This document shows positions 1 through 59,338 of a DNA stretch of 64,000 nt, piece after piece. A program made the position numbers and the translations under genes. The notes under the pieces are model-generated. The model was not told the origin of the DNA, made no database searches, and was given only the letters and a program-made list of their open reading frames with translations. Within the stretch, counting starts at the first letter, position 1. Each line of letters begins with the position of its first letter. The stretch is from a virus: positions 1 through 64,000 of IMG/VR virus record IMGVR_UViG_3300005732_000005. One strand, given 5' to 3'.

Positions 1-26
1 GAAACAAAACAACTTAAGAGAACATT

Positions 27-269
27 ATGAAAGTTAAAAACTTAGAGTCACTAAAAGAATTAATCTTTAATGAAGATGTTGTAACTATCCCGTTAGGTTT
101 TACTTATACAGGGTCAGACTGTTACGGGTGCTATCAAGACTTGGTTACAAAAGAGATCTATGTTAGACACTCAGAGAATAGCTTTTATAAATACAATTCT
201 GTAGAAGAAACTATTGCAGAATATAAAGAATTAGGTTATCTAGTTAGTTTTAATTTATTGGATAAATGA
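27..269 (+). CDS. hypothetical early protein
   Basis: ORF with AAGAGA RBS-like element upstream; part of rightward early cluster. Confidence 0.75.
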   Translation: MKVKNLESLKELIFNEDVVTIPLGFTYTGSDCYGCYQDLVTKEIYVRHSENSFYKYNSVEETIAEYKELGYLVSFNLLDK

Positions 270-272
270 ATA

Positions 273-319
273 GTTGCTTTGTTGGGTCGTTTTATAATAA
301 AATGCCTCTTAACAAGGTA
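273..319. repeat. intergenic stem-loop repeat, copy 1
   Basis: TTGCTTTGTTGG..TTTTA-TAA-TAAAATG..TCTTAACAAGGTAA; similar copy at 588-634; each precedes an early ORF. Confidence 0.65.
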
Positions 320-348
320 ATTTAATTTAACTTAAAGAGGGTAATAAA

Positions 349-579
349 ATGACTAATAATAATGAACAGATGTACTTATTGAATGAAAACAGATTTAATA
401 AACCAGCTTTGAATGCCGAAACTAAAGAAGAAATGAAAGGATTAATTAGTCTAGGTTATGGTAATTTTGTAAGAGTACTTGATGACATCTTTGTAACATA
501 TATATCTATAGATCCAATTAGTTGGGAAAAAGAAAGTGTTAGGATGTACAAGGCTTATTTAAACTCAGACATTTTTTAA
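349..579 (+). CDS. hypothetical early protein
   Basis: ORF with GAGGG RBS. Confidence 0.75.
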   Translation: MTNNNEQMYLLNENRFNKPALNAETKEEMKGLISLGYGNFVRVLDDIFVTYISIDPISWEKESVRMYKAYLNSDIF

Positions 580-587
580 ATAAAGGG

Positions 588-634
588 TTGCTTTGTTGGA
601 GCATTTTAAATAAAAATGCTTCTTAACAAGACAA
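588..634. repeat. intergenic stem-loop repeat, copy 2
   Basis: TTGCTTTGTTGGAGCATTTT-AAAT-AAAAATGCTTCTTAACAAGACAA imperfect inverted repeat. Confidence 0.65.
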
Positions 635-655
635 TTTAATTTTTGAGAGAATATT

Positions 656-826
656 ATGAAAAATAAACACTCTTCTAAGCGCCTAGAGCGTCTATTCAAG
701 TTAACAGATACATTACAAGAGAGGACACTTAGAACTAAGTATCTTTTAACCAAACAGGGGCTTTCTAAGGGTGCAGAATTGTATAAGCCGAGGGCTATTG
801 TTAAAACGGTTATTGTGAGGGGCTAA
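656..826 (+). CDS. small basic hypothetical protein (56 aa, MKNKHSSKRLERL...)
   Basis: Hand-translated ORF below the track cut-off; GAGAGA upstream; follows the repeated stem-loop like its neighbour. Confidence 0.55.
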   Translation: MKNKHSSKRLERLFKLTDTLQERTLRTKYLLTKQGLSKGAELYKPRAIVKTVIVRG

Positions 827-1045
827 GTATGAAAATTAATCTAGGGTGTGACGAGTTTACAGCAGATTATTGAGCCTAATCCACATTTTCATTCAGGGAC
901 TAAAATGTATAACCCAAGGTCTAGCTAGCTTTTTCATTCAATAGCTGATTCTAGAAAGGATAATTTCTATAGAGAAAATGGTTTTCATTTGACAGGGGAT
1001 TCTGCAGGAATTAAGGATTTATGAGATAATCTCAATTTTTCTAAA

Positions 1046-1153
1046 TGTTAATTGTTTGTTGTTAGATGTTAATAAATTGTTAACAAGGCTAACAGGAGTT
1101 AACAATTTTAAAATGTTAATCTATTGTGACAAACAATTAACATTTTATTAACA
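1046..1153. promoter_or_regulatory. cluster of ArcA-box-like direct repeats
   Basis: TGTTAA repeats at 11-bp spacing: TGTTAATAAATTGTTAA 1067-1083 (+), TGTTAATAAAATGTTAA 1137-1153 (-), weaker copies at 1046 and 1114. Confidence 0.6.
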
Positions 1154-1232
1154 ATTACATACATTGAAAACAGGTTACGAATGATGGGGAAAGAATTGTT
1201 AAAAGTCAATACTTAATTAGAGGTAAATTAAA

Positions 1233-1421
1233 ATGTACGTTTTATATGATGGTATGCAAGAATCAAGCCAAGATGTTAAAATATACTGCCCTACGTTAAA
1301 GGGTGATTTCTATCTAAGCCCGTGGTTTGCGAGTTACCCAGTTTGGGATAATGATAATTTCTTTTTTATAGAGGGGTTAGGGAATGATGAGTTAAGACTA
1401 TCTACAATGTTAGAGTTCTAG
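1233..1421 (+). CDS. hypothetical protein
   Basis: ORF with GAGGT RBS. Confidence 0.65.
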   Translation: MYVLYDGMQESSQDVKIYCPTLKGDFYLSPWFASYPVWDNDNFFFIEGLGNDELRLSTMLEF

Positions 1422-1703
1422 TAAGTATCATGCCAAAAAGATTAATTTTGTTAGAATAGTTTAGTCCAGAAAATCACCTGTATATAACAAAAATACATAT
1501 ACTGCTGAGACGTCCTGAGAGCCATTCTGAGGGGTTTTTGTGTTTACCCTAACATTGACAGTTTGAAGAGGAGATCTCAATTCGCCAATATATTGGCGGT
1601 GGACATTTGACAAAGTGGCACAGTATTTGCCAGTAAGGGTATTGAGAACAATTCTCATCAAAAAGTGTGCCAAAAATAAATTAAAATAATTTGTTGAAAG
1701 GGG

Positions 1704-1733
1704 TTGCCTGTTTTCAAAATTTAGTGCTAAGAT
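1704..1733 (+). promoter_or_regulatory. early sigma70-type promoter
   Basis: GGG-TTGCCT...TG-C-TAAGAT (extended -10) with AT-rich upstream tract; same design as 2391 and 2731. Confidence 0.6.
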
Positions 1734-1786
1734 CACCCCATCAAGGCAATAAAGCTTTTAACATATTCTATATAGGAATCATTATC

Positions 1787-2341
1787 ATGTTATCACTAAA
1801 TGAAAAAGCAGCTCACTCAGTAACATACTTTGAAGCATTGCAAGCTAACCCAGATAATACAAAACAGTTTGCTATTGAAAAGCTAGGGTATTCAAAAGGT
1901 GAAGCTGAAGAAGTGGTGAAAGTATGGTGTGATTGTTTTGTAGAATTATCTAACGTTATGGAATGGGATCAGATTGTAGAGCTATCACAGGAAACAATCA
2001 CTGAAGAAGAGATCGCCAAGTCACAAAAACAAGATACAACAAAGTCAATTGTTAAGCAATTTATGAGTGACTGGGACAAAGAGTATAAAGCGATAAAGAG
2101 AGTTCAGAAATTACAAGAGGATCTAGACTGGGTTTATAAAACAGAAAAACCATATGAAAGAATTGCTAACAGTTTGAAGCTATGGAAACAAAAACACACC
2201 GATGCTTTCCAAGTGATTAAAGACAAAGTGGTAAAAGGATTGTATACAGAATCAACACTTGATAAGGCTATCGAATTGCACGGAAAGAATGATCTGGGGT
2301 ATGTAATAGACTGTTTTATGGACATGTTAGAAGAGGCATAA
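1787..2341 (+). CDS. hypothetical early protein
   Basis: ORF; start moved to ATG 1787 after the promoter and AGGA RBS. Confidence 0.75.
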   Translation: MLSLNEKAAHSVTYFEALQANPDNTKQFAIEKLGYSKGEAEEVVKVWCDCFVELSNVMEWDQIVELSQETITEEEIAKSQKQDTTKSIVKQFMSDWDKEYKAIKRVQKLQEDLDWVYKTEKPYERIANSLKLWKQKHTDAFQVIKDKVVKGLYTESTLDKAIELHGKNDLGYVIDCFMDMLEEA

Positions 2342-2390
2342 AACCTTTTCTTTTATAACTTTTTATTCTAAGTGAATTTGCTGAAGAGGG

Positions 2391-2418
2391 TTGCACTGCC
2401 CCCAGAATTTGCTATTAT
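2391..2418 (+). promoter_or_regulatory. early sigma70-type promoter
   Basis: GAGGG-TTGCAC-N16-TATTAT with TG extended -10. Confidence 0.6.
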
Positions 2419-2489
2419 TTATATCAAGCAAGGGGGAACAGAGATACACCCCCTCCAAACGAGAATTATTATCAAATAGGAATATTAAG

Positions 2490-2711
2490 ATGAATAAGCA
2501 AGAAACATACCAAATTATCGAACGTTTTTCTAAATTAGTAGATAAATATGAAAACAAACCAAAGTGGCACACTCTTTGCAAGGATGTAGTTTTCTGTGCG
2601 GAGTCTCTAGCACAACAAATCAATCTTGGCAAGGATAAATTTGAAATAAAAGAATATGTTGAAGATGTTAATAATGCAATTGAGAATTGTTATCAACAAG
2701 AAATAATTTAA
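2490..2711 (+). CDS. hypothetical early protein
   Basis: ORF; ATG 2490 after AGGA RBS. Confidence 0.7.
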   Translation: MNKQETYQIIERFSKLVDKYENKPKWHTLCKDVVFCAESLAQQINLGKDKFEIKEYVEDVNNAIENCYQQEII

Positions 2712-2730
2712 AATAAATGTGTTTTGAGGG

Positions 2731-2758
2731 TTGACACCCTCAACCAGTTTGCTATTAT
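2731..2758 (+). promoter_or_regulatory. early sigma70-type promoter
   Basis: GAGGG-TTGACA-N16-TATTAT with TG extended -10. Confidence 0.7.
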
Positions 2759-2799
2759 ATACACATAGACAAGGCGAACAACAAACAGGAAAAAACATT

Positions 2800-3051
2800 A
2801 TGCTTAAATTCAAAAAACACTTTGCGGGTCGTTATATTGCAACACTAGGAACAGCAGTTATAGTAGTTGAGAAGCTGGAAGGGGAGTGGACATCATACCT
2901 TGAAGGGGACATGACAAGGGACACACAAGAGTTCTACCATACAAAAAAGCAAGCTATTGAAACAGTTAACTGCTATGCAAGTAATCCTGACAATGTGAAG
3001 GAATGGCAAGAATACTTAACTGAAGAAGAGGTAAAAGTTTTTCAAATCTAA
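2800..3051 (+). CDS. hypothetical early protein
   Basis: ORF; ATG 2800 after AGGA RBS. Confidence 0.7.
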   Translation: MLKFKKHFAGRYIATLGTAVIVVEKLEGEWTSYLEGDMTRDTQEFYHTKKQAIETVNCYASNPDNVKEWQEYLTEEEVKVFQI

Positions 3052-3070
3052 ATAAGAATCATTATCAACA

Positions 3071-3100
3071 AATGCCACTGTAAAATGTGGCATTCTTTTT
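3071..3100 (+). terminator. rho-independent terminator ending early block
   Basis: AATGCCAC-loop-GTGGCATT followed by CTTTTT. Confidence 0.65.
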
Positions 3101-3110
3101 GCATACTAAA

Positions 3111-3130
3111 TGTTATGTTATAACATAACA
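3111..3130. promoter_or_regulatory. Zur-box-like palindrome
   Basis: TGTTATGTTATAACATAACA contains two overlapping TGTTAT-N3-ATAACA cores; another core TGTTATAGTATAACA at 4578-4592. Confidence 0.55.
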
Positions 3131-3394
3131 AAATCTCTATTCACTTAATGAATAATTCCCACCTATAGCAAGTATCTAGCAAGCTACGTGCCAACTTGAT
3201 TTTACTAAAACACACTCCCTCTGAAAGCCTTATAAATAAAGGGCTAGAGACTTACGTCCTCAAAAGCAATTCCTGAGCATATGCAACACTACCCAATACA
3301 CTAGCTCAGGTTAATTAACCTTGCTCATACAGGCTCTCTCAAGGCGTTATATCTATATAAAACACTTTGGCACAGTATGTGCATATGAATAAAC

Positions 3395-3487
3395 CTTGCA
3401 TATGTATGCAAAAAGTGAATAATTGAGAATAGTTTGCATTTAAAGGTTAATGCATACCTATGCACAAATTGTGCATAAATATCTACC
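3395..3487. promoter_or_regulatory. ARG-box-like sites (ArgR)
   Basis: TGCATATGTATGCA (3397) and tandem 18-mers AATGCATACCTATGCACA-aat-TGTGCATAAATATCTACC with the canonical 3-bp spacer. Confidence 0.5.
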
Positions 3488-4547
3488 CATTATCTACTAC
3501 GTAGATGCAAGTAGTTCTCATTTACAAACAGTTATTAACCATAGGTTAAATGATAATTATTCTTATTACACTAGAACACACATAAATCTAAATGATAATC
3601 ATTACTAAATACGAATAGTTATCATTAATAAACTCTAATAATATCAATAATCTAAATGAGAATTGTTTTTATTTGCAATGTGCAAATGAGAAGTGTTATT
3701 GTTTAAGAATTAATCTTATTTAGAAATGTTAGCGTTTGTTAACATAAATAGTAATTATTCTTATTTAGATTACTTTATTAATCTTTTTAATGAGAATGAT
3801 TCGTATTAATTGATAAATTAAAATGTGGTATGTTGTTTGCATGTAATGCAAGAAGGATACCTCTTTGTTGCTATGCAACATATATGCCAAACTACCTTGA
3901 AAGCCTTTATTTATATAGCCATGGCTATATGAGAGTGATTGTTATTTGCAATTGCAAATTAAAGTAGAATGTTATGTTACATAGTAACAAAAGGGGGATA
4001 TTCGTCAACCTTGTTGACAAAGACAGGGTATTGTGAGAAGGGATAATTGGGGAAGGGGATTGCTGTAGTGGGAGTTGTGGGGGAGAGGGGTTTAACAAAC
4101 CACGAACACTAACACGACAACAACACAAGACCATTCACCTACTGTTACATAGTAACAAAAGTAAACACCATCTATTGCGTAGCAATAAAAGTACACTCTC
4201 TGTTAACATCGTTAACAAATATATAACCTTTCAAACAATAATCCTCTCACAAGCAATAATATCTCTGATGTAAATTAATTGTTAATAAAAGGTATGTTCT
4301 CGTTAACGTAGTTAACAAAGTGTAAACCCCCTTTACAAAATACAACTATTCATCATATCTATGATAAGAAGTATTATATTCATCTAACTAATACGACATA
4401 ATATAGAATATGTTAAATATAGATGAGAATGATTCTTGTTTGGAGGGAATACTTATTCAATAGGAATTGTTGTTATTTGAGAGGGATTCTCATCAACTAC
4501 GTTGATAAAAGAGATACTTGTTGAGAGGGGTTCTTATTTGAGGGAGT

Positions 4548-4940
4548 AGGATATTTTATACGGAAAGTAGGTTGTTATGTTATAGTATAACAAACGTTGA
4601 GCAATGCTCACTTTACTTTCCACTTTTCCATAAATATCATTTACTTACAGATATTCTTCTCCAGATATTTCCACCCTCATACAAGGATATTTCTCCCCCC
4701 AAAATTTTATTTTTGTAATATAGGATATTTTTATATACTCCGTATATAGAGTGTGGTATGCTTTAAAAGGAGGTTAGTATTTTTATTATTTTTAGTATAT
4801 TTACTAAAGGCAAGCCTATTTTTCCTTAATTAAAACAATAACTTACAGAGAGGTTTAGACAAAATAATTTCATTTTGTAGGAGATATTTTTAATGGTTGT
4901 ATATATTTGAAAGTATGTTATTATTAAGAGTAGGATATTT
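4548..4940 (+). repeat. iteron-like direct repeats, candidate replication origin
   Basis: Seven same-strand GATATT(T/C) copies (AGGATATTT at 4548, 4684, 4722, 4932; CAGATATT at 4648, 4662; GAGATATTT at 4881) immediately upstream of a helicase-like gene. Confidence 0.45.
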
Positions 4941-4976
4941 TATTTTTAAAACACACTTAACAGAGGAGAAATATTT

Positions 4977-6257
4977 TTGAAGATAGAACTTATTGATTAC
5001 ATGATGGGTACAGGTAAGAGTAGTTATATTTTGGACAAGGTAGTTGATTGGAGTAATGAAGGTCTTTATGAACAGTTTATCTATATAAGTCCATTACTAA
5101 GTGAAGTAGGTGGTAAACGTAAAGAGAAAGGTAAAGGTTTCTTAAGAGGAAGAGTTCAAGAGAAAGCAGATTGTATGGACTTTAGATACCCTCTTAATAT
5201 ATCAAGTTCAAAACTAGATAGTTTTAGAGATTTACTTTTAAAAGGTAGTAATATTAGTGCTACACACAATGTATTTACAAACCTAACACCTTTAGATGTA
5301 GACCTTATTAAGGAGAGGAAGAATGTTCTCATCATTGATGAGGAAGTACAAGCTTTAGATACATATACAGATTTAGGTGTAAAGCATTTACAAGTATTAA
5401 TCAATGGTGGACAGGTTTATAAGGATGAAACTAACAGGTTATGTTGGAATCACAGATTGTTTCCGCAAACAGAAGATTTCCTAAATAACCCTTCAGAAGA
5501 TACATACTCTAAAAACGATTTACAGTTATCTAAATTCATTAATTTGTGTGATGGTGGTTACCTTCATTCGGTGAATGATAAGATTATGATCTGGGAATAC
5601 CCTATTAGTGTTCTAGAAGCTTTTGATAAAGTTATTGTCATGACTTATATGTTTGAAGCTAGTCCTATGTACTCTTGGTGTAGGATGAATAACGTTGATA
5701 TTGTCAGACTAGATATACCAGAACTTAAATCCAGAGAGGATGAGATAAAAGCGTCTCTAAAGGATTTAGTAACTGTAGTAGAAACCAGTAAGATGAAGAC
5801 AATAGAGAATTTTGGGTATAGTTATTCTTGGTGGAAAGGTACAGGTAGTAACAAAACTTACACAGCAAAGGTTAAAAATGTTTTAGAGGATTGTGTACAG
5901 AACCAATTAAAAGGTTTAAGTTACAAGGACTATATATTCACCTGCCCAGAGAATAGTTTCCCCAAAATTAAGGGTAAGAGATACAGCAGGAGTGACTGGT
6001 TGTATAGTGATTGTAAAGCTACCAACGATTATGCAGACAAGAAGGTTATGTTCTACCTTTACAGTAAGTTCCCTAATGTGTTTATTAGCCCTTTTTGTAA
6101 AGAGAAAGGTGTGAGTATTGACGAAGACATGTATGCCCTCAGTTCTATGCTACAGTGGTTGTGGAGAGGGTGTATCAGGAAAGGAGAACCTATGAAAGTG
6201 GTGATATTAAGTAAGAGAATGAGGGATTTGTTTAAGGAGTGGTTGGATGGAGAATAA
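4977..6257 (+). CDS. SF2 helicase-like / putative origin-binding protein
   Basis: Walker A MGTGKSS, Walker B IIDEE, C-terminal QWLWRGCIR motif VI-like; TTG start with GAGGAG RBS. Confidence 0.7.
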   Translation: MKIELIDYMMGTGKSSYILDKVVDWSNEGLYEQFIYISPLLSEVGGKRKEKGKGFLRGRVQEKADCMDFRYPLNISSSKLDSFRDLLLKGSNISATHNVFTNLTPLDVDLIKERKNVLIIDEEVQALDTYTDLGVKHLQVLINGGQVYKDETNRLCWNHRLFPQTEDFLNNPSEDTYSKNDLQLSKFINLCDGGYLHSVNDKIMIWEYPISVLEAFDKVIVMTYMFEASPMYSWCRMNNVDIVRLDIPELKSREDEIKASLKDLVTVVETSKMKTIENFGYSYSWWKGTGSNKTYTAKVKNVLEDCVQNQLKGLSYKDYIFTCPENSFPKIKGKRYSRSDWLYSDCKATNDYADKKVMFYLYSKFPNVFISPFCKEKGVSIDEDMYALSSMLQWLWRGCIRKGEPMKVVILSKRMRDLFKEWLDGE

Positions 6258-6993
6258 ATACTATGTCTACCAAGTTGTTCACGAAGGAGAAGTAATCTAT
6301 GTGGGTAAGGGTAAAGGTGGCAGATACAAACACGCAACCTCAGGTAAAAGTCATAATTATAAACTAAATGAATTCCATTTTAAACATAAGCTCCTTGGAG
6401 ATGTGTTGCCAGAAGTTGACATTATAAAGTATTTTGAAGAAGAGAAGGATGCTTTAGCTTACGAGTCAAAACTTATACTAGAACACTACCCTTATTGTAA
6501 CATACAGAAGAAAGAGAACGCATTAGATTTGTTTAAGGTCGAGCCTGTTAAAGATGGTGGTACGGAAGGACAAGATTATGTCCCTGTATATGAGGAAGGT
6601 GGGACAGAAAAGGAAGAGTTGGTTTTTCTTCCCACTACTGTAGAAGATGTGGATGATTTAATGAAGAAAAGATATGAAATCTATCTCGAAAACACAGAAC
6701 TTCTACGACCAAATACTTATCGGACATTCTTGAGTAGTCTTTTGTTCAACAAATCTTTGAAGTGGCGCGATATATCGCACCTCATTGAGGAATTGGTAGA
6801 ATCTATCCCAGATATGAGGAAAGATAATGGTGGACATAATAAGAGGGAGTTTGCAATTAAGTATGGTTTGTCTGAAAAAGAGGCTAAGTGTATTAACAAC
6901 AGGACAAATTATCTTAAAAAGAAAGGTAAACCTGTAACAGAAGAAGATTTATTAAAGACATTAGAAAAGTTTAGGAGGAAAAATGGAAAATAA
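6247..6993 (+). CDS. GIY-YIG-domain protein (paralogue 1)
   Basis: YVY..VIYVGKG..RY..H, conserved E and N; C-terminal possible HTH. Confidence 0.65.
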   Translation: MENKYYVYQVVHEGEVIYVGKGKGGRYKHATSGKSHNYKLNEFHFKHKLLGDVLPEVDIIKYFEEEKDALAYESKLILEHYPYCNIQKKENALDLFKVEPVKDGGTEGQDYVPVYEEGGTEKEELVFLPTTVEDVDDLMKKRYEIYLENTELLRPNTYRTFLSSLLFNKSLKWRDISHLIEELVESIPDMRKDNGGHNKREFAIKYGLSEKEAKCINNRTNYLKKKGKPVTEEDLLKTLEKFRRKNGK

Positions 6994-7528
6994 GTATTAT
7001 GTGTATACGGTTAGTGTTGACAATGAAGTGGTTTATGTAGGTAAAGGTAAGAATGACAGAGCTGAGCACGTAACATCAGGTTGCAGTCACAACAAAGGAT
7101 TGAATGAACTTTATTTTAGACATAAGTTGTTAGGAGAAGATTTACCCTTGGTAGAAATTTATTCCTCAGTGTCAGAAAATGTTGCACTAGCAGAAGAGCA
7201 TTTGCTTGTGAAACGCTATAATCCACGATGTAACTCAGCACTTAAAAATACTGATGTTAAACTTTATAATCATTGGGATGATGGAGATATTCTTAGGTAT
7301 ATGGAAGAAAATTGGGACACTAGATCTTTCAGAGACATACCTGAATCGACAGGATTGAGTAATGACCAAAAAGATTGGATTTACGAGAATATTTGTGGAC
7401 ACGAGATTCTTTATGACGAGGAAATACTTTCTATAGCGGTATCTCATAGTAATCTATACGGGAAAGAGATAAGTTGTGAGTTTGTAAGAGCATTGTCTCA
7501 AGTTAGGGATACTAGAGAAGGGAGGTAG
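6983..7528 (+). CDS. GIY-YIG-domain protein (paralogue 2)
   Basis: YVY..VVYVGKG..R..H..E..YNPRCN; N-terminus highly similar to preceding ORF. Confidence 0.65.
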   Translation: MENKYYVYTVSVDNEVVYVGKGKNDRAEHVTSGCSHNKGLNELYFRHKLLGEDLPLVEIYSSVSENVALAEEHLLVKRYNPRCNSALKNTDVKLYNHWDDGDILRYMEENWDTRSFRDIPESTGLSNDQKDWIYENICGHEILYDEEILSIAVSHSNLYGKEISCEFVRALSQVRDTREGR

Positions 7529-9134: not shown

Positions 9135-9661
9135 ACTTTCTCCTTCAATGTTGGAGGTGATTTAAGTTTAACAGTTTCTATAGATCTGTCTATATCTTTT
9201 AACAGTCTTTCTTTGATGGTAATAAACTTCTTATCTATATCTTCTGAAGTCATCTCCTTATCTGATAACAATTGCCCTTCTACTTGATCCAGTATAATTT
9301 TAAAATCTTTAAGGGAATCTTCAACCCCTGATAACCACATCTCCTTTGAACCTGCAGGGCAATATATGTCTGAACTATCTACTACAATAGTTCCATTTCC
9401 TACCTCCCCTATATAAATATCTCCTTTGTCGAACATTGCATTTGCATCCTCCATTAAACAACCCATATAAACACTTTCCCCCTTTTCTGTTTGCTTTTTG
9501 AATAATTCGTTTATATTTTCTGACATCTCTAGGTTGTAAGTGCATATGAAGTTTTTGTCAACCTCACTTACAAAGAAACCAATTCTGTTACTTGGACACT
9601 TCTCCATAAGATTATTGAGTTTTTTAATCCAGCCCGCTTCAGCCCTTGTCAGTTTACTCAT
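9131..9661 (-). CDS. hypothetical protein
   Basis: ORF. Confidence 0.7.
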   Translation of the reverse strand: MSKLTRAEAGWIKKLNNLMEKCPSNRIGFFVSEVDKNFICTYNLEMSENINELFKKQTEKGESVYMGCLMEDANAMFDKGDIYIGEVGNGTIVVDSSDIYCPAGSKEMWLSGVEDSLKDFKIILDQVEGQLLSDKEMTSEDIDKKFITIKERLLKDIDRSIETVKLKSPPTLKEKV

Positions 9662-9686
9662 ATTCCAGTCATCTCCTCGATCAATC

Positions 9687-10118
9687 TCATACTATCTTCA
9701 CCACTTCATATCCTAATTCTTTAGCTTCTCTTAAGAAACGATTTTCTTCTGAATACTTGGCAACTTCTTGAGTGATTCTACTTTTCTTTAACACATATTT
9801 GGTGATAGATTCTTCATCTCCGTCAAACCACTTTCTTACAATATCGTAAGGGATAATAATATTTGAGCTAGAGTAAAAACCATCGTAATCATCTTCATAT
9901 TCCAACACAATCTGAACAGAAGTGTTGTTGAATTCTACAAATGTAACTGTCTCACCATAACCTACTCGGAAAGGATTATAATCGTGAAAAGAAGTATTCC
10001 TACTTTCAAGAGTAACACCACTCAGGAAATCACATAACTCTTGAAAAACACCCTCCACTTTTGACAAAGTTTCTTGTGCTGAAAGGTATTCTTGTTTAAG
10101 AGTTTCTATATCTGTCAT
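9687..10118 (-). CDS. hypothetical protein
   Basis: ORF with GGAG RBS. Confidence 0.7.
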   Translation of the reverse strand: MTDIETLKQEYLSAQETLSKVEGVFQELCDFLSGVTLESRNTSFHDYNPFRVGYGETVTFVEFNNTSVQIVLEYEDDYDGFYSSSNIIIPYDIVRKWFDGDEESITKYVLKKSRITQEVAKYSEENRFLREAKELGYEVVKIV

Positions 10119-20965: not shown

Positions 20966-23610
20966 TTATAATGAACAACTTTCACAATCTGGTGCTTTAC
21001 CTTCGTCACCTCTTCCTGTCTTACTCACAGAGTAATATAATGTTTTAACACCCATACTATTTCCATAGTAGAAGTTTTCGTGCATCTCTTGCTTAGATTG
21101 CTTCTTGTTCTTGTATTTACTGAAATCTACATAAGTATCAGCACTGATAGTTTGGTCTGTAAATTTCTGAACAATAGCATAAAGGTTTAGAATATCTTTG
21201 TGATCTAAGTCATAAGCAATCTCATAATTATACTTATCACTATCAGGTGCAAAGAACTGAACCTTACCTTTCTTACTATCTTTATATACAAGAGTGTTTC
21301 TTGCTGGATAGATACTGTTTAATCCACCAGAAGCTAAACTACTTGACTCACAAGGCATATGGCAAGCAATAACACTAAACCTTACACCACTCTCCTTAAT
21401 ATCCGCTGCTAAAGATTTCCAGTCATAAATATAGTGGTCTTTAACAAGCTTGTCAACATTCTTATTGTAAGTTTCTAATGGTGTCCAACCTTCTGACCAC
21501 TTAGTCTTATCAATGAATTCAAAAATGCCACGTTCTTTAGCAAGCTTCACACTAGCTTTTAATAGATAGTAATAATGCCTCTCTGACACTTCGTGTAAGA
21601 ATTGTAAATCTTTATAAGACTTACCTTCTCGTGCTACAAGTGTTGCTAAGTTTGTCATACCTACTCCAACACTACGATAAGCTTGTGCTGTAGCGCGTAA
21701 TTGAGGGAAAGGGTAATCCATATTCTCAATTAGATTATCTAAACTCTTTAATACAATGTAAGCCGTTTCCTCATAATCTTTGTCATCTTCGATGTTAGCA
21801 ACATCAATAGCTGATAAGAAACACTGTGCTGTAACACCGTCACCTTCTTCATACTCTGTTTTATACAACTCTGTAATATGATTATAAGGTTTTGTTGGTA
21901 ATAAAACTTCCTGACCATTTATCCCTCCATTTTCATGGGGCGTGGACTATATCATCACCTGTTCTAGGTGTTGGGCGCTAATGTGGTTATTAAGCTCTCA
22001 AGCTCCACTAGTCTCTGAACGTTCTCTATCCTTAGAGCTTCGCTGCTGATTGGCATAGGTAACCCCTTAGCTTTCCAGCAATTCACCCAATTTTTCAATA
22101 CATATTCCTATGTAAAGCTGCGTCAATTTCACAGATTTGAAAGTCTTATTGTTTCTTTAAAAGGTGTATGTCGATTACCTTCTGTTACGTTATATCTGTA
22201 AAGTCTTCCTGTCTCAGATCTAACCTCTAAGTAAAGATCTACAATGTCATAAGCACTTACCTCTACTTTCCTTGCATTATCATCTGCAAGTATATTGTCC
22301 ATAATCTCTGTAAAGCGAGTTAAATCTTTAGAATAAAACTCTTCGTAAAGTTCAGGATAATCTGCACGACTTACTAAAGCTACCTTTTCACGTCTAGCTG
22401 CTCTACGTAACACATCGTGATTCACTCGGAAAGAGTAATCTAACAATTCAATTCTACGTTCTTCTGGACTACGTGGGAGCTTCAATCGTAACAAGTTTTT
22501 AATCTCAGGGTCAATACATTCGAAGCTCACTGTCGCACTACCACCTCTGGCAGATTGTGTCACCTCTTTCACGATACGGTTAAGAGTTTTATAATGTGGA
22601 AGTTTGCCACCTGCCTTAGCATAACCATTTCTGACATCATCTTTTGGACTACGGACATCGTATTCAACACCCAAACCTGCACTAGATGCTGTTGCCATAA
22701 AGGCTACGTGCTTAGAAGCTTCAATACCGTGTAAACTATCGCCTGCAGTTGTAATAACACAACTTACTCCGATGTTACTCTTTGTTCGTTGACCTGATAA
22801 TACTGGAGATGGAATGTTAATCTTATTACTACGTGCTTTATGGTAATACATAATAACATCATCTAAGCTATCTTTTTCCATCAAACTCATAGCAACACCC
22901 ATATACATATACTGAGGTAGCTCTACAAGCTGGCCTTTACCGTCATATTTTAAATATTTATCTATAAATTGACGAATAGTTGGGTAACCGTAGTTAAGGT
23001 CGTAATCGTGGTCAATGAAAGATGCTAAATACTCAATATCTTCTTCGGAGTAATTCATCTCTCTCCAATGACCTTCTGAAACAGCCCACTCATAAAAGTC
23101 CACAAAATCTTTGGGGGCAATTGAACTATTTCGTAAATCACCTAGTAACAAACGACCTGCAACTTTATTGTGTTGATAATCTTCTTTATCTAAACAAGCT
23201 TGGATTAAAGCATCTTGAACAGTTTTAGAAGATACAATACCATCTGGTAACTTCCTAACTGCACTCATAGCAATAGATGACCAATTAACATTATCTGTAT
23301 TTGCTACTGCCCATACTGCCATAGAATTTAGCTTATCTGCTGACCATTCTTCTTTACTGCCGTCACGTTTTAATACGACACGTTTATTAAGCAAATCACC
23401 CACAGTATTAGCACTGTCGCTTTCTCCGTGATATTCACCATTAACAAAAATTTGTGGAACAGTTCGGAAACCTTGGTTACGGATAAACTCAAAAGAATCT
23501 ACATCTTCTGAAATGTCTACATAGTTGTATTCGATACCTTTACTATCTAAAATATTTTTAGCCTTATCACAGAAAGGACAATTCGGTTTACCATATACAA
23601 CTACTTCCAC
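20966..23610 (-). CDS. nrdA: class I ribonucleotide reductase alpha subunit with N-terminal glutaredoxin and ATP-cone; two exons (23610-22131, 21915-20966), 809 aa spliced
   Basis: CPFC Grx domain, KRDG ATP-cone, PSP..SG, SCV, RGGSA, spliced SNL-C-QE, MPCESSS, DQTISAD, KTLYY, terminal CESC. Confidence 0.9.
21916..22130 (-). mobile_element. group I intron (IA-like, ORF-less, 215 nt) in nrdA
   Basis: 5' exon ends in U (CUGU|) pairing with GCAG (P1); UUGAC pairs with 3' exon GUCAG (P10); P AAUUGCUGGAAA, Q AAUCAGCAG, R GUUCAGAGACUA, S GAUAUAGUCC; terminal G; removal restores frame and the catalytic Cys codon. Confidence 0.93.
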
Positions 23611-33727: not shown

Positions 33728-35182
33728 TTAGTTACTAGATTTATTACCCTTAATTACATCTTGGACAAGTTTTGTTGATAATAAGTCACTCACTTGATTG
33801 CCACCAGTATTACCACCCATAACAATGTCTGGAGTGTCAATCTTAACTTGAGGTAATACTTGTGCAATAGCTTTAGCTTCTTCAAGAGACAACTCTGCAA
33901 GATAGATCTTTTCATTAGATGACTTTGCTTCTAGCTTAGCTTTAGCAACAGCAGCCTCTGCAAAACCTTTTTCTTTAGTAGCTTTAGCTTCGTAAAGAGC
34001 GGCTTGGTAGTTAGCAGCTTGAATACCCTCGTTTGCTTCTGCGATTTGCAATTCACGTTGTTTATCAATAATTGCCAGATTAGCTACCTTTTGACGTTCT
34101 ACAGTTTCAATAGCTTCATTATCTTTTGCAATCTGTAACTCACGCTGCTTATCGATCACAGCAAGGTCTGCAACTTTCTGTCGTTCAACCTTCTCTTTAT
34201 CAGCTTGAATTTGAGCTAACTCTACTTGTTTCTGAGCTTGAATTACTTCACGGTCTTTCTCCATAAGTGCTCGGTTCTTGGCGCTGATTCGTGCTGTCTC
34301 ACCTTTAAGTTGTGCGTTTACCGCTGCTTCTCGTTCTTTCCGTTGATCAGCAATCATGTCTGCACGTTCTTTCTCTCGACGTTTAATGGTGGCTACATAC
34401 TCTTGTAAATCAGTCATCGGTGCAAACTCACCCAAATCCACTTGAGAGATAGTGATACCATATTTAGTCAAAGAGTGTGGACGACGAAGAGGAATTCCTT
34501 TATCATCAGTCTGAATCACAACTTTATACTGGAACTGTTTCGCAGTCGCATTCTGGTCACGATTACCTGTTAAAGATTGGTCTGCCACTTGATCTTCAAC
34601 TTCCACCTTCTCTCGACGAGTTTGTAACATACCATTATCAGCTTGGTCTTGTAAACGCTGCTTGAAAGCACCTTTACCACCTTGCATGAAATCTTGTGCT
34701 AAGAATTGGTCGGTTGTTAAACTAAGCATATCTTTGGCAAATGTCTGGAATGTGTTACCTTCTAGATTACGTTGAGATTTAACTTCTTGGTGCATCTGCT
34801 CAAGTTTGTCAGGTGATGTTGAAAGACGTACTCTCCAACAAGCCTCCATCAAACCACCATAGTTGTCTGCAAAAGTGACCATTAACGGAGCACGTACTGC
34901 ACTCGCTGTATTAACAATCTCTTCATCATCACTAACACAAATTGTAGAGACAGCGTTATAAGTATCTACACGAGAGAAGAATGGTACTTTAAATTTCATA
35001 CCCTCTGTTTGATGCCATTCATATTTACCATTCATTGTGTTCTGGATACGGACCATCTCACCACTACTTACTGTTGTGAAACTGCTCATGCCTGTAATAA
35101 ACAAACCTAGGCCGATAGCAACACCCGTTCCATATTTCTTGACTGTTTTCATTACATCTTGTTGCTTAACTTGTTCGTTCAT
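33728..35182 (-). CDS. SPFH/band 7 (flotillin-like) membrane protein
   Basis: N-terminal TM, FKVPFF, TFAD.YGG, YGI.I, long Ala/Glu-rich coiled coil with internal repeat. Confidence 0.8.
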   Translation of the reverse strand: MNEQVKQQDVMKTVKKYGTGVAIGLGLFITGMSSFTTVSSGEMVRIQNTMNGKYEWHQTEGMKFKVPFFSRVDTYNAVSTICVSDDEEIVNTASAVRAPLMVTFADNYGGLMEACWRVRLSTSPDKLEQMHQEVKSQRNLEGNTFQTFAKDMLSLTTDQFLAQDFMQGGKGAFKQRLQDQADNGMLQTRREKVEVEDQVADQSLTGNRDQNATAKQFQYKVVIQTDDKGIPLRRPHSLTKYGITISQVDLGEFAPMTDLQEYVATIKRREKERADMIADQRKEREAAVNAQLKGETARISAKNRALMEKDREVIQAQKQVELAQIQADKEKVERQKVADLAVIDKQRELQIAKDNEAIETVERQKVANLAIIDKQRELQIAEANEGIQAANYQAALYEAKATKEKGFAEAAVAKAKLEAKSSNEKIYLAELSLEEAKAIAQVLPQVKIDTPDIVMGGNTGGNQVSDLLSTKLVQDVIKGNKSSN

Positions 35183-44553: not shown

Positions 44554-44628
44554 TGGAGCGACATATCGGTTACGATCCGATGACTCCGACTTGGAAGGAC
44601 GGGATTTTTCCAATTAAACTAATGTCGC
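44554..44628 (-). tRNA. tRNA-Gly(TCC)
   Basis: Acceptor GCGACAT/ATGTCGC-T-CCA, anticodon loop CTTCCAA, T arm with ATCG variant. Confidence 0.8.
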
Positions 44629-57240: not shown

Positions 57241-59338
57241 ATGTCAAAAGATAAACAAGAACCTTTCTTTAAACCTGCAAGTAAAAAACAAGCTCTTATG
57301 TTAAAAAGAGCTTCTGATACTCAAATATTGATTATCGGTGGGGCTTAAAAATCCAGTGGTCACACCTTAAACTATCCTGCTAATTCGGTGGAAGCTAAGT
57401 GTTTATACTAACATACGCCAATACCGAGCCGAATGATTAAATTCATGGGTGTAGAGGTCATCTCGTAAGAGAGTAGAGTTCAAGTGGACTCGAAACGTAG
57501 GACTGTATACCAATACAGAAGATATGATCCGACAACACAGGAAACTGTGGAAAGAGTGTAACGACTCTAAAACTGTCTCAGATTAAAGGCTGGTTCTGGG
57601 AAAAGTACGATATTAAATCACCTGCCTCTTATGTTACTAGATGACCCCAAAACAAACTGCATCTTGTATCGTAGGACAAATCCTCAACTGTTAGGTGGTC
57701 TTTGGCCTAATGCTAGAGGAATTTACGAAAAACTTCCAAAAGCTTATGAACCTAAGGCTATAAGAGATCATAAGATGGAAGTAGTATTTAAGAATGGAGC
57801 TAAAATAAAATATCAACAAGCGGAGAACGTGGCTAAATCTAAGAATGATGCTCAAGGTCAGGAGTTCACGTTTGTCGGAATAGATAAAATTTGTCTATTT
57901 GAAAGGTTTTTAGCATAATTATTTTAATGATTATAACCTTTCTGGAAAAATTGTGTGAATTCGGTGGAACTCTTTGTAAGACAATACCGAGCCAAGGTTA
58001 CGGGGTAACTCGTTTCAAGGTGTAACGACTAGAGAATACGAACCTAGAGGGTTTATGAATCTCGTACAGCCAAGTGGTAGCGAAAGCTTTAAATGGAAGC
58101 GCACAAACTCTAGCTAAAAGAGTAAGATATAGTCTCAACTTCTACGGTGACGTAGAGATGCAGGTAATGCTGCTGGTAAAGATTAACGAACTTTATTGAA
58201 GATATTGGAAGGTACACAATTCGAGTGGGAACAAATAGAGTACTTTATGTCACGTCTACGTTCCCCCTCAAAACACTTCTCCCGTATGGTAATCTCATGT
58301 AACCCCGACCCCGACCATTATATTAGGACGATGATCGACTGGTACTTAGACGAATCTGGTTATGCTATACCTGAAAGAGATGGGGTAGTAAGATACTTCG
58401 TACAGGAAGGTGGTGAGTATGTATGGGGTAATTCTAAAAAAGAGTTAGGTGAAAAGTTAAATTTACCTAAAGATCGTTGGGAAGATAAGATCCTCAGCTT
58501 CTCGTTTGTTAGTGGGACGATCTACGATAATCCGATTATGATGGAGATTAACCCGTCATACTTAGCTTTCTTAGAAGGTCTTAACGATGTCGATAAGGCA
58601 CAGTTACTTCACGGATGTTGGGATGCCAGACCTCAAGGTGCTAATTACTGGCAAAGAGAATGGGTAACGGAGATACAATCTAAAGATGTAGACCTAAGTT
58701 CTATGAGAAAGGTAAGAACATACGATTTAGCGGCAACAGAACGTAGTCAGGTAAATAAAAGCCCTGACCCAACAGCTTGTGCTCTTATGTGTAAAGACCG
58801 TAATGGTTATTATTACATTGCAGGTAACTATCATCCAGATTTTTATGATGACTACTATGAGATATATGGTCAATTCTGTAAACGTTCTGGGGATAGGGAT
58901 ATGCATATAATAAAACAAGGTCATCATGACACAGATGATACTGTAATCTTGTTGCCAGTGGATTGTGGCGCTGCAGGTAAGACGGCTTTCACTGCCATGG
59001 CTTCAAACTTTATGCAAGAAGGCTTTACAGTAAAGGCTGACCCTACTCCAAACAACAAGACAAAATTGGTAAAATTTCAGCCATTTGCAACGGCAACAGA
59101 GAACGGGCTTGTATATGTGTTGGTAGATACTTTTGATAAGAAGACTTTAGAGTTTATATACAAACAACTAGAAGCTTTTGATGGAGAAAGGTCTACAGCC
59201 ACAAAACATGATGAATTTCCAGATCTATTGGCGAGCGGGTATAACTATCTCTCAAGAGAACGTGTCATCAAACCCTTCTCCCTTCCAGATTGTTCCTCCT
59301 CCACAAAATACACTTCTTATCGAAACTCGATAAAATAA
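57241..59338 (+). CDS. terL: terminase large subunit; three exons (57241-57345, 57589-57885, 58208-59338), 510 aa spliced
   Basis: Splicing restores Walker A GGA|AGSGKS and Walker B FVGID|EGTQF; SRLRS, CNP, YDLAA, HDE..D. Confidence 0.9.
57346..57588 (+). mobile_element. group I intron 1 in terL (ORF-less, 243 nt)
   Basis: Exon GGUGGGGCU| pairs with GGUCACACC (P1, U.G); CCAGU pairs with 3' exon GCUGG (P10); AAUUCGGUGGAA/AAUACCGAG P4; P7 GGUCA/UGAUC; terminal G. Confidence 0.88.
57886..58207 (+). mobile_element. group I intron 2 in terL (ORF-less, 322 nt)
   Basis: Exon AAUAGAU| pairs with GUCUAUU (P1); AAUUCGGUGGAA/AAUACCGAG; R GUAACGACUA, S AAGAUAUAGUCU; terminal G. Confidence 0.9.

Follow-up and report, generated by a model that had tools for sequence, protein, structure and literature searches.

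The non-coding region 3052–4976 of the virus record IMGVR_UViG_3300005732_000005 contains a dense array of sequences matching binding sites of host regulators, and it could plausibly be a chromosome-end packaging hub of the ICP1/rV5-like type, the end of which would be coated by abundant host proteins during DNA entry and circularisation. The record represents the 140-kb genome of an ICP1/rV5-like marine myovirus, whose best portal match is to Pseudoalteromonas phages (62%); the window analysed here comprises its positions 1–64,000. A blastn search of GenBank phages with positions 1–7000 gave zero matches.

In the region 830–4976, 2,929 of 4,147 bp are non-coding, compared with about 88% coding DNA genome-wide, which agrees with the original prediction of more than 2.5 kb of non-coding DNA within a gene-dense genome. 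The description of this region as protein-free does not hold, since four small early open reading frames (ORFs) lie inside it, each with a purine-rich upstream sequence, and some of the sites fall within them. Searches of PHROGs, Pfam and GenBank phages found no match for ORF 1787–2341, and an Rfam search found none for 3052–4976; DNA folding predicted no stable hairpin in the element 3217–3336, and no structured RNA or single-strand DNA hairpin was found. The features, with predicted sites given by position, are as follows:

830–1232, non-coding block 1, with a Fur-like site at 971 and ArcA-like direct repeats of 11-bp period at 1046–1153
1233–1421, + strand, small early ORF of 62 aa with no family; a sigma54-like site inside at 1253
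1418–1789, non-coding block 2, with Fur sites 1641 and 1771 and sigma54 sites 1418, 1616 and 1655
1787–2341, + strand, early ORF of 184 aa
2388–2476, + strand, sigma70-type early promoter (by consensus only), then the strong Fur site 2458, ahead of ORF 2490
2490–2711, + strand, early ORF of 73 aa; sigma54 site 2565 and Fur site 2679 inside the coding sequence
2731–2758, + strand, near-consensus sigma70 promoter
2800–3051, + strand, last ORF of the early cassette, 83 aa
3071–3102, + strand, intrinsic terminator of the early cassette, overlapping sigma54 site 3088
3052–4976, main hub, 1.9 kb non-coding; its positional orthologs are the terminal-repeat/pac regions of ICP1, rV5-like phages and Shewanella phages 1/4 and 1/40
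3217–3336, 122-bp element, 72% identical in phage J2-1, between sigma54 sites 3176 and 3368
3395–3487, three ARG-box-like palindromes (9–12 bits), weak here; the corresponding position of J2-1 has stronger ones
3422–3946, densest Fur field, nine sites (3422, 3504, 3549, 3591, 3608, 3655, 3685, 3747, 3789), plus 3928
3970–3989 and 4573, further Zur-like palindromes
4040–4140, G-rich stretch with an abrupt switch to C/A-rich DNA, at the same relative place in J2-1
4200–4330, second ArcA-like repeat group, weak
4422–4592, Fur sites 4422, 4476 and 4520, ARG-like site 4444 and the Zur-like palindrome 4573
4551–4976, + strand, oriented iteron field
4697–4712, A-tract/T-tract landmark
4977–6257, + strand, YonV-like superfamily 2 (SF2) helicase-fold protein of 426 aa (PF27199, phrog_2467)
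134,352–134,458 of the genome, second small array, on the far side of the early cassette, about 9–10 kb from the hub

The array is real as a set of predicted binding sites, because its members match E. coli-derived matrices and the Zur regulon; matrices from E. coli may miss the sites of other hosts. The Fur matrix was built de novo on promoters of the E. coli K-12 iron regulon (3 of the 17 training regions were chosen by pattern scan) and was applied with a cut-off of 8 bits. It found 20 sites in 830–4976, against 0.8 expected from 500 dinucleotide shuffles (maximum 5). The sites are 19-bp inverted repeats matching E. coli Fur sites; 12 of them score at least 12 bits, within the range of E. 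coli's own sites (7.5–22, leave-one-out), compared with only two such sites in the remaining 136 kb of the genome. Motif matches number 16, 12 and 9 in the 1-kb bins that begin at 3001, 3501 and 2501, respectively; outside the main array and the second array at 134 kb, no bin contains more than two.

An E. coli-derived sigma54 matrix gave nine sites in the same region versus 1.0 in shuffled sequences (maximum 5); eight of the nine are strong (11–20 bits), with −24/−12 elements at fixed spacing, the best being site 2565 (20 bits), inside ORF 2490–2711. A perfect 20-bp Zur palindrome occupies 3111–3130, and exact copies of this 20-mer were found at 120 or more bacterial loci, where it stands ahead of zinc-starvation genes; in this tally of Zur-box loci alone, the downstream genes mainly encode COG0523/CobW proteins (24 of 104), TonB receptors (10), FolE2 (6), ZnuA (6), Fur-family proteins (4) and ZrgA (2). 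The enrichment is lower for ArcA (seven sites versus 2.4 expected, P ~0.015 uncorrected, the E. coli matrix itself being weak) and ArgR (four sites of 9–12 bits versus 0.8, P ~0.015 uncorrected); the ARG-like sites 3449 and 3470 are 21 bp apart, which is the tandem spacing of 18-bp ARG palindromes, usually paired 3 bp apart, and across the whole window a simple ARG pattern shows no enrichment. Neither a DnaA-box cluster nor a LexA-like cluster is present in the region. The proposed tiling by motif families, and with it the multi-regulator binding platform, is thus borne out at the sequence level for Fur, sigma54 and Zur and weakly for the modestly enriched ArcA and ArgR; the families are partly interleaved, rather than each locally clustered as had been suggested. 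That the sites serve phage-encoded proteins, or are chance matches in AT-rich DNA that merely resemble host boxes, is very improbable: the region has a GC content of 24–30%, the ArcA and ARG matches come close to what chance gives and host-protein binding is a prediction from sequence, but composition-keeping shuffles give 0.8 Fur and 1.0 sigma54 sites against 20 and nine, and three unrelated host consensuses are matched together, the Zur box letter for letter, across phages with unrelated gene sets.

Fur site 1771 covers the ribosome-binding region of ORF 1787–2341, sites 1771 and 2458 both lie between the promoter and the start codon of early genes, the rightward sigma54 sites 1616 and 2565 are located 171 and 235 bp before ORF starts, and the second array is directly upstream of the early cassette. 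This placement favours host-state sensing, in which operators would adjust the early cassette and the helicase-like gene, or the firing of the origin, to the iron, zinc, redox and nitrogen status of the host, the array being near the end only because the early cassette is. We regard such sensing as unlikely, since the DNA past the cassette terminator contains four sigma54 sites, all three Zur boxes and about two-thirds of the Fur sites, none of which has a promoter or gene there to act on, and since the regulator set is not conserved. Sigma54 also requires an activator, which is a further point against it. Sites 1418, 1655 (weaker), 3176 and 3872 are directed leftward, and 1616 and 3368 rightward; among the eight strong sites, four face left, where there is no credible minus-strand gene, two face 1.6–1.9 kb of non-coding DNA, and for six the next 1.5 kb downstream on the same strand contains no gene start. 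Most sigma54 sites are thus without a gene to transcribe, which favours the chromosome-end hub.

The chromosome ends of relatives fall in the region orthologous to the hub. Shewanella phages 1/4 and 1/40 possess 381-bp terminal repeats with identical boundaries and four Fur boxes each (16–18 bits), with sigma54 sites just before the repeats; the terminal repeats of the rV5-like phages HdK5 and ECP2309 are exact, 459 bp long, and contain Fur boxes at 10, 126 and 144 and a sigma54 site at 92, and the record of the rV5-like phage bov11CS3 begins at the same base. The PhageTerm cuts of ICP1 strain 2006_E, given as 431 and 891 (PMC7145576), map to 590 and 1050 of HQ641347 and bracket Fur boxes 870, 887 and 936; positions 4426–4469 of the window align with ICP1 directly beside the mapped cut site (45-bp stretch). 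Records 1.187.O, 1.193.O, 355E48.1, RYC and HM1 also break in the matching region. End overlaps of 55 bp in 355E48.1, 24 bp in HM1 and 69 bp in the present genome were taken to be assembly overlaps rather than terminal repeats. By analogy, the short terminal repeat of the present phage would lie somewhere in ~3400–4600. The chromosome-end reading is weakened by the present assembly, which opens 3–4.5 kb to the left of the predicted end, and the orthology is drawn from gene order, iterons and motif order, because the DNA of the end-mapped phages is only marginally similar (45 bp in ICP1).

Pseudoalteromonas phage J2-1 keeps the motif order, though the DNA barely aligns. Among the closest relatives, the iteron field is nearly constant and the regulator mix changes: the present phage and J2-1 are Fur-rich, L257 and L003 are ArgR-rich, and L259 and J2-1_QLiu carry sigma54/Zur arrays, the Zur scores in relatives being indicative only, as their matrix was built from three window sites. 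Conservation of motifs despite sequence divergence was therefore found for motif order in J2-1 and not for the set of regulators. The array is not universal, because L260–L262, RYC and 424E50-1 show none with E. coli matrices; H101 and J2-1_QLiu are Fur-poor by the same matrices, and in Felix O1 a Fur array is absent, the only find being an ArcA-like cluster (12.8–13.3 kb) obtained with a window-derived matrix. A 17-mer from position 1516 recurs in J2-1, J2-1_QLiu and 1.187.O, and not convincingly in T5.

As in the pac regions of ICP1- and rV5-like phages, the gap is located at the 3′ end of the early cassette and contains oriented iterons and an A/T-tract landmark. The iteron hexamer (as at 4884–4889) has 10 same-strand copies in 500 bp and at most three anywhere else; most close relatives carry the field, whether or not they have the helicase gene, and the original prediction had not listed it. 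The neighbouring YonV-like protein has an XPD/DinG-like fold, an invariant Walker A lysine and Walker B acidic pair, and no recognised initiator domain. Its gene adjoins the hub in many relatives; as an organiser of the array it was rejected, since most of ~65 YonV loci have no gap or array and some array-bearing phages have no YonV. Host proteins might instead bend or phase a late origin/pac for an iteron-binding protein, the terminase or the YonV-like helicase, a late role resembling that of IHF at lambda cos, and we give this architecture a small chance. In its favour, the late rolling-circle origin and the pac site of ICP1 lie together in the region orthologous to the hub (PMC7145576), PLE copies part of the ICP1 pac region (PMC11417361), and the conserved iterons abut the SF2 helicase-fold gene; however, that gene is missing in J2-1, HM1, 1/40, 1.187.O and ICP1 and far from the Fur cluster in 4L372XY, the Fur spacings (17–104 bp) have no fixed phase, the region is without a DnaA-box cluster, and the replication origins of T5 are mid-genome, yet its repeat ends carry Fur boxes.

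The preferred reading, a packaging hub with a host-coated end, would comprise two layers. The conserved phage layer, made up of the oriented iterons and the A/T-tract, is probably read by phage packaging or replication proteins and would adjoin the short terminal repeat, where, as in ICP1, the terminase would cut and late rolling-circle replication would start. The variable host layer would consist of the strong sites in and beside the terminal repeat, thinning into the early cassette, for Fur above all, sigma54 holoenzyme, Zur and probably ArgR and ArcA. Once this end enters the cytoplasm, host proteins would bind at once, ahead of any phage protein, to form a nucleoprotein cap that may hold or ratchet the DNA inward and keep the end shielded or presented until recombination of the repeats circularises the genome. 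The cap may also stop transcription from the strong early promoters running on into the pac/origin; the identity of the regulator would matter less than the abundance of the binding protein. Several considerations weaken the cap: a number of sites lie as far as 2 kb from the hub, either at promoters of early genes or within early ORFs, which suits gene regulation; RecBCD displaces many bound proteins, which tells against simple end protection; and Fur and Zur bind only when metal-loaded, which makes them an odd choice for an obligatory step. In the rV5-like phage Bas54, transposon insertions were absent from 2 kb of intergenic DNA flanked by oppositely transcribed genes (10.1101/2025.11.20.689424); judging from the rV5 map, this would be the matching terminus region, which would speak for the hub, although pac/origin function alone explains its essentiality.

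The original prediction favoured a host-takeover sponge and named a T5-like nucleoprotein structure for DNA entry or replication as the alternative; the alternative fits better, because the genome ends of Shewanella phages 1/4 and 1/40, rV5-like phages and ICP1 are located in the orthologous region. Replicated genomes acting as a sponge would soak up Fur, Zur, sigma54, ArgR and ArcA and so derepress iron and zinc uptake and arginine synthesis. Fur is present in thousands of molecules per cell, and one pre-replication genome with ~20 Fur sites is unlikely to titrate it early in infection. Such titration, which appears rather improbable to us, draws support from site strengths equal to E. coli's own in numbers far above the needs of one operator, from the iron-dependent ribonucleotide reductase encoded by the phage, and from the known titration of Fur by multicopy Fur boxes (FURTA; PMC3788343); but the regulator set varies, a sponge has no need of a genome-end position, yet arrays sit at the ends in four phage groups, and ICP1 degrades the host chromosome during its own replication (PMC11417361), so that the chromosome is already degraded once phage copies are many.

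It is possible, if doubtful, that large lytic phages of gammaproteobacteria, namely ICP1-, rV5- and T5-like phages and the present phage, share an undescribed cis device, in which arrays of sites for interchangeable host regulators, placed both at the end of the chromosome and at the far side of the first 9–12 kb, would recruit host proteins to grip, pace or protect entering DNA. Non-coding, repeat-rich ends of large phages are already known, the function of the repeats is not, and the T5 injection stop has been unexplained for decades; many of the end repeats are host Fur, sigma54 and Zur boxes, within the terminal repeat in three separate phage groups, and this identity opens the question to direct experiment in tractable phage–host pairs. 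If the device exists, the inner array would correspond to the T5 injection stop, these myoviruses would be expected to enter in stages, and Fur would have a role in the 50-year-old T5 problem. Should the entering end require host proteins, infection would be tied to metal status via DNA, not receptors, which matters for seas short of iron and for phage therapy in iron-poor tissue; if the sites are dispensable, the array would be an unusually dense but accessory regulatory island. A literature search for phage Fur-box, sigma54 or decoy arrays, in which subscription papers were mostly outside coverage, found nothing relevant.

Among known systems, the ORF-less space between gp1 and gp2 of ICP1, a phage of the same group, has iterons and an A/T-tract on one side and Fur boxes with a Zur-like site on the other, with small early genes transcribed towards it; the ends are mapped in ICP1 and predicted here, whereas the present array is about five times denser, has sigma54 sites and extends into the early cassette. 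The available parts of the ICP1 papers on the pac/terminus and origin do not mention host-regulator sites (PMC7145576, PMC11417361). The rV5-like and Shewanella repeats likewise lie in a non-coding gap (1.5–2.6 kb) at the end of a sigma70-driven early cassette, with Fur and sigma54 sites in or beside the repeat and a second Fur group 9–12 kb away; they differ in having no alignable DNA, the Zur boxes and the helicase-like gene being extra in the present phage. An iteron-type origin has oriented short repeats beside an AT-rich stretch and an initiator gene; here the iterons are present, and their neighbour is the helicase-fold gene, which is absent in several relatives. Repeat Region 3 of T5, the injection stop signal (10.1101/866236), is also untranslated, repeat-rich and located at the edge of the pre-early cassette, and a perfect Fur box lies at 233, at the left end of T5, with four strong boxes (9552–9721) around the calculated shear point 9618. 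T5, however, is a siphovirus, its repeats are 10 kb long and its DNA is injected in two steps, while the relatives of the present phage have short terminal repeats and staged entry is not known for their group; the T5 region has DnaA boxes, and the injection-stop paper proposes DnaA and does not mention Fur (10.1101/866236). The host operators of Fur, Zur, ArgR, ArcA and sigma54 (−24/−12) resemble the sites described here in sequence and strength, but comprise one to three sites at the promoter of the relevant gene, in contrast to the present array of ~35 sites for several regulators, most of them without a gene.

The motif array at positions 830–4976 is real. It lies in a circular assembly of 140,374 bp (end overlap 69 bp, GC content 36%), whose first 64 kb make up the window. 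Because the genome carries terminase, portal, ligase, helicase and reductase genes, and because the best portal matches are found in the Pseudoalteromonas phages HM1 and J2-1 (62%), followed by Vibrio and Shewanella myoviruses (40–49%), the phage can be assigned to the ICP1/rV5-like lytic myoviruses of marine gammaproteobacteria. The features that frame the array are listed below.

About 134.9 kb across the assembly junction to 3051, plus strand: early cassette of small genes, with sigma70-type promoters in front
263–328 and 577–642: two early promoter/leader repeats of 66 bp each, with an unusual -35 hexamer
1.9 kb after 3051, no strand: gene-free hub
4977–6257, plus strand: YonV-like protein (426 aa), 3' of the hub, predicted XPD/DinG-type helicase fold (SF2)
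134,352–134,458 of the whole genome (locus L016, outside the window): second array, three Zur boxes with 29-bp spacing and a sigma54 site

The 66-bp repeat is also found 5' of early genes in phage J2-1_QLiu (80% over 60 bp). The modelled YonV-like protein has a compact XPD/DinG-like SF2 helicase fold (mean pLDDT 92.8), and members of the YonV family also occur in SPbeta and in Acinetobacter and Fusobacterium phages. Other features of the window include tandem ORFs with near-identical N-termini (6247–6993 and 6983–7528), weakly similar to GIY-YIG homing endonucleases (phrog_314, phrog_1111), group I introns in the regions of the ribonucleotide reductase large subunit (21924–22140) and the terminase large subunit (57915–58157), a tRNA-Gly (44554–44628) and a minus-strand SPFH/Band 7 family protein (33728–35182).

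The original prediction described a protein-free stretch with over 2.5 kb of non-coding DNA; the interval is gene-poor, with 2,929 bp non-coding, but four small ORFs lie inside 830–4976. Its several regulator motif families were scored with matrices that had been trained de novo on promoters of E. coli K-12, so that the scoring is not circular; the training regions were picked by coordinate, and every set returned the textbook consensus. Within 830–4976, the E. coli matrices found 20 Fur sites versus 0.8 in shuffles and nine sigma54 sites versus 1.0 expected, and Fur sites of at least 12 bits number 12 in the array versus two in the remaining genome. At the level of sequence the Fur, sigma54 and Zur families are supported, while ArcA (7 versus 2.4) and ArgR (4 versus 0.8) show only modest enrichment (P ~0.015 for each, uncorrected). 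The palindrome at 3111–3130 has exact copies at at least 120 bacterial loci, only eight of them within long ORFs, and is identified as a Zur box from its bacterial context, since the genes adjoining these copies belong mostly to zinc-starvation families. A field of iterons on one strand only (4551–4976) had been overlooked. Judging from the motifs, host proteins very probably do bind at these sites.

Comparable motif density elsewhere in the genome is confined to the small second array, which lies where the early cassette begins, about 9–10 kb from the hub. This array is conserved in J2-1 and H101, as is a 54–65 bp element in it. Another motif group 7–13 kb from the first is also present in 1/40, 1.187.O, 355E48.1, J2-1, J2-1_QLiu and H101. 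The second array is a candidate counterpart of the injection stop of T5; in the T5 injection-stop region, a LexA-box-like palindrome is seen at T5 9409–9429 (L024:4410–4430).

The expected conservation of motifs despite DNA divergence was borne out in J2-1, where only 122 bases can be aligned with the hub, yet the reversed sequence presents iterons, G/C switch, Zur, Fur, sigma54, ARG plus Fur, sigma54, the 122-bp element and a terminator in much the same order; past the terminator, Fur and sigma54 sites lie among small genes, as here. Metagenomic relatives whose YonV is 75% identical still have iterons upstream, along with a Fur box and a Zur-like palindrome. Among close relatives the iterons are near-constant (5–11 copies), whereas the regulator mix varies. 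A composite sigma54-plus-Fur pattern retrieved 24 more viral contigs, many with 5–10 such sites inside a 3-kb stretch. Felix O1 has no Fur array; six ArcA-like repeats cluster there (L155:12777–13290) with a window-derived matrix, which the E. coli matrix does not support. J2-1_QLiu has three exact DnaA boxes upstream of its hub (L002:6471–6644), and a close relative has, at the end of its contig (L003:1–290), a long inverted repeat (about 1–75 with 205–282) that carries four ARG-like boxes.

In every relative with known ends, the region matching the hub corresponds to a chromosome end. Shewanella phages 1/4 and 1/40, whose genomes differ, each have a terminal repeat of 381 bp; its boundaries are identical in the two, and it encloses four Fur boxes. 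In the rV5-like phages HdK5 and ECP2309 the repeats are exact and 459 bp long, and their first 165 bp include three Fur boxes and one sigma54 site; in rV5 the repeat sits in a gap of 2.6 kb, transcription of the early cassette runs towards this gap, and a second Fur group lies 12 kb off. For ICP1, the published account (PMC7145576) maps virion ends to 431 and 891 in strain 2006_E and places the late rolling-circle origin in the same gap; after a shift by the 159-bp offset, three Fur boxes together with a Zur-like site lie between these ends. The two fixed cut sites, 461 bp apart (L020:590–1050 of ICP1), are more like a short direct terminal repeat, comparable to the 459 bp of rV5, than like the pure headful pac site that was published. 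In T5 a Fur box lies at 233, and four more surround the shear point calculated for the first step; one paper on this region (10.1101/866236) does not mention Fur. Judged by the order of its genes, by the iterons and by the A/T-tract landmark (4697–4712), the present phage probably has its terminus in the hub.

Strong host-type sites, kept in kind and order, are located at terminal repeats. Host proteins bound there would give the DNA end a structural cap, and a cap for entry or circularisation is, tentatively and at somewhat under even chances, the main role of the array. The cap is favoured over a sponge or ordinary operators on three grounds: in four phage groups it is at the ends that the sites are concentrated, one regulator can stand in for another, and the majority of the sigma54 and Fur sites have no gene to control. 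Titration of host regulators, proposed originally as the main role, fails on numbers before replication, given the abundance of Fur per cell, and its targets would be gone after degradation of host DNA, which is described for ICP1 (PMC11417361). Since multicopy Fur boxes can titrate Fur (PMC3788343), titration is possible as a late side effect. Regulation of the early cassette by the sites at 1616–2679 is plausible, and a late role in shaping a pac/origin complex cannot be separated from the entry role by sequence. In the rV5-like phage Bas54, a 2-kb intergenic region takes no insertions (10.1101/2025.11.20.689424), which shows that the hub is important, though the boxes themselves are not thereby implicated.

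No paper on host-regulator arrays in terminal hubs turned up in the literature search. Terminal non-coding hubs are themselves already known, as the pac region of ICP1 and Repeat Region 3 of T5; what is new here is that the boxes lie within the terminal repeat of three phage groups, that the Zur box was identified from the genes beside its bacterial copies, and that the iterons stay constant where the regulators vary.
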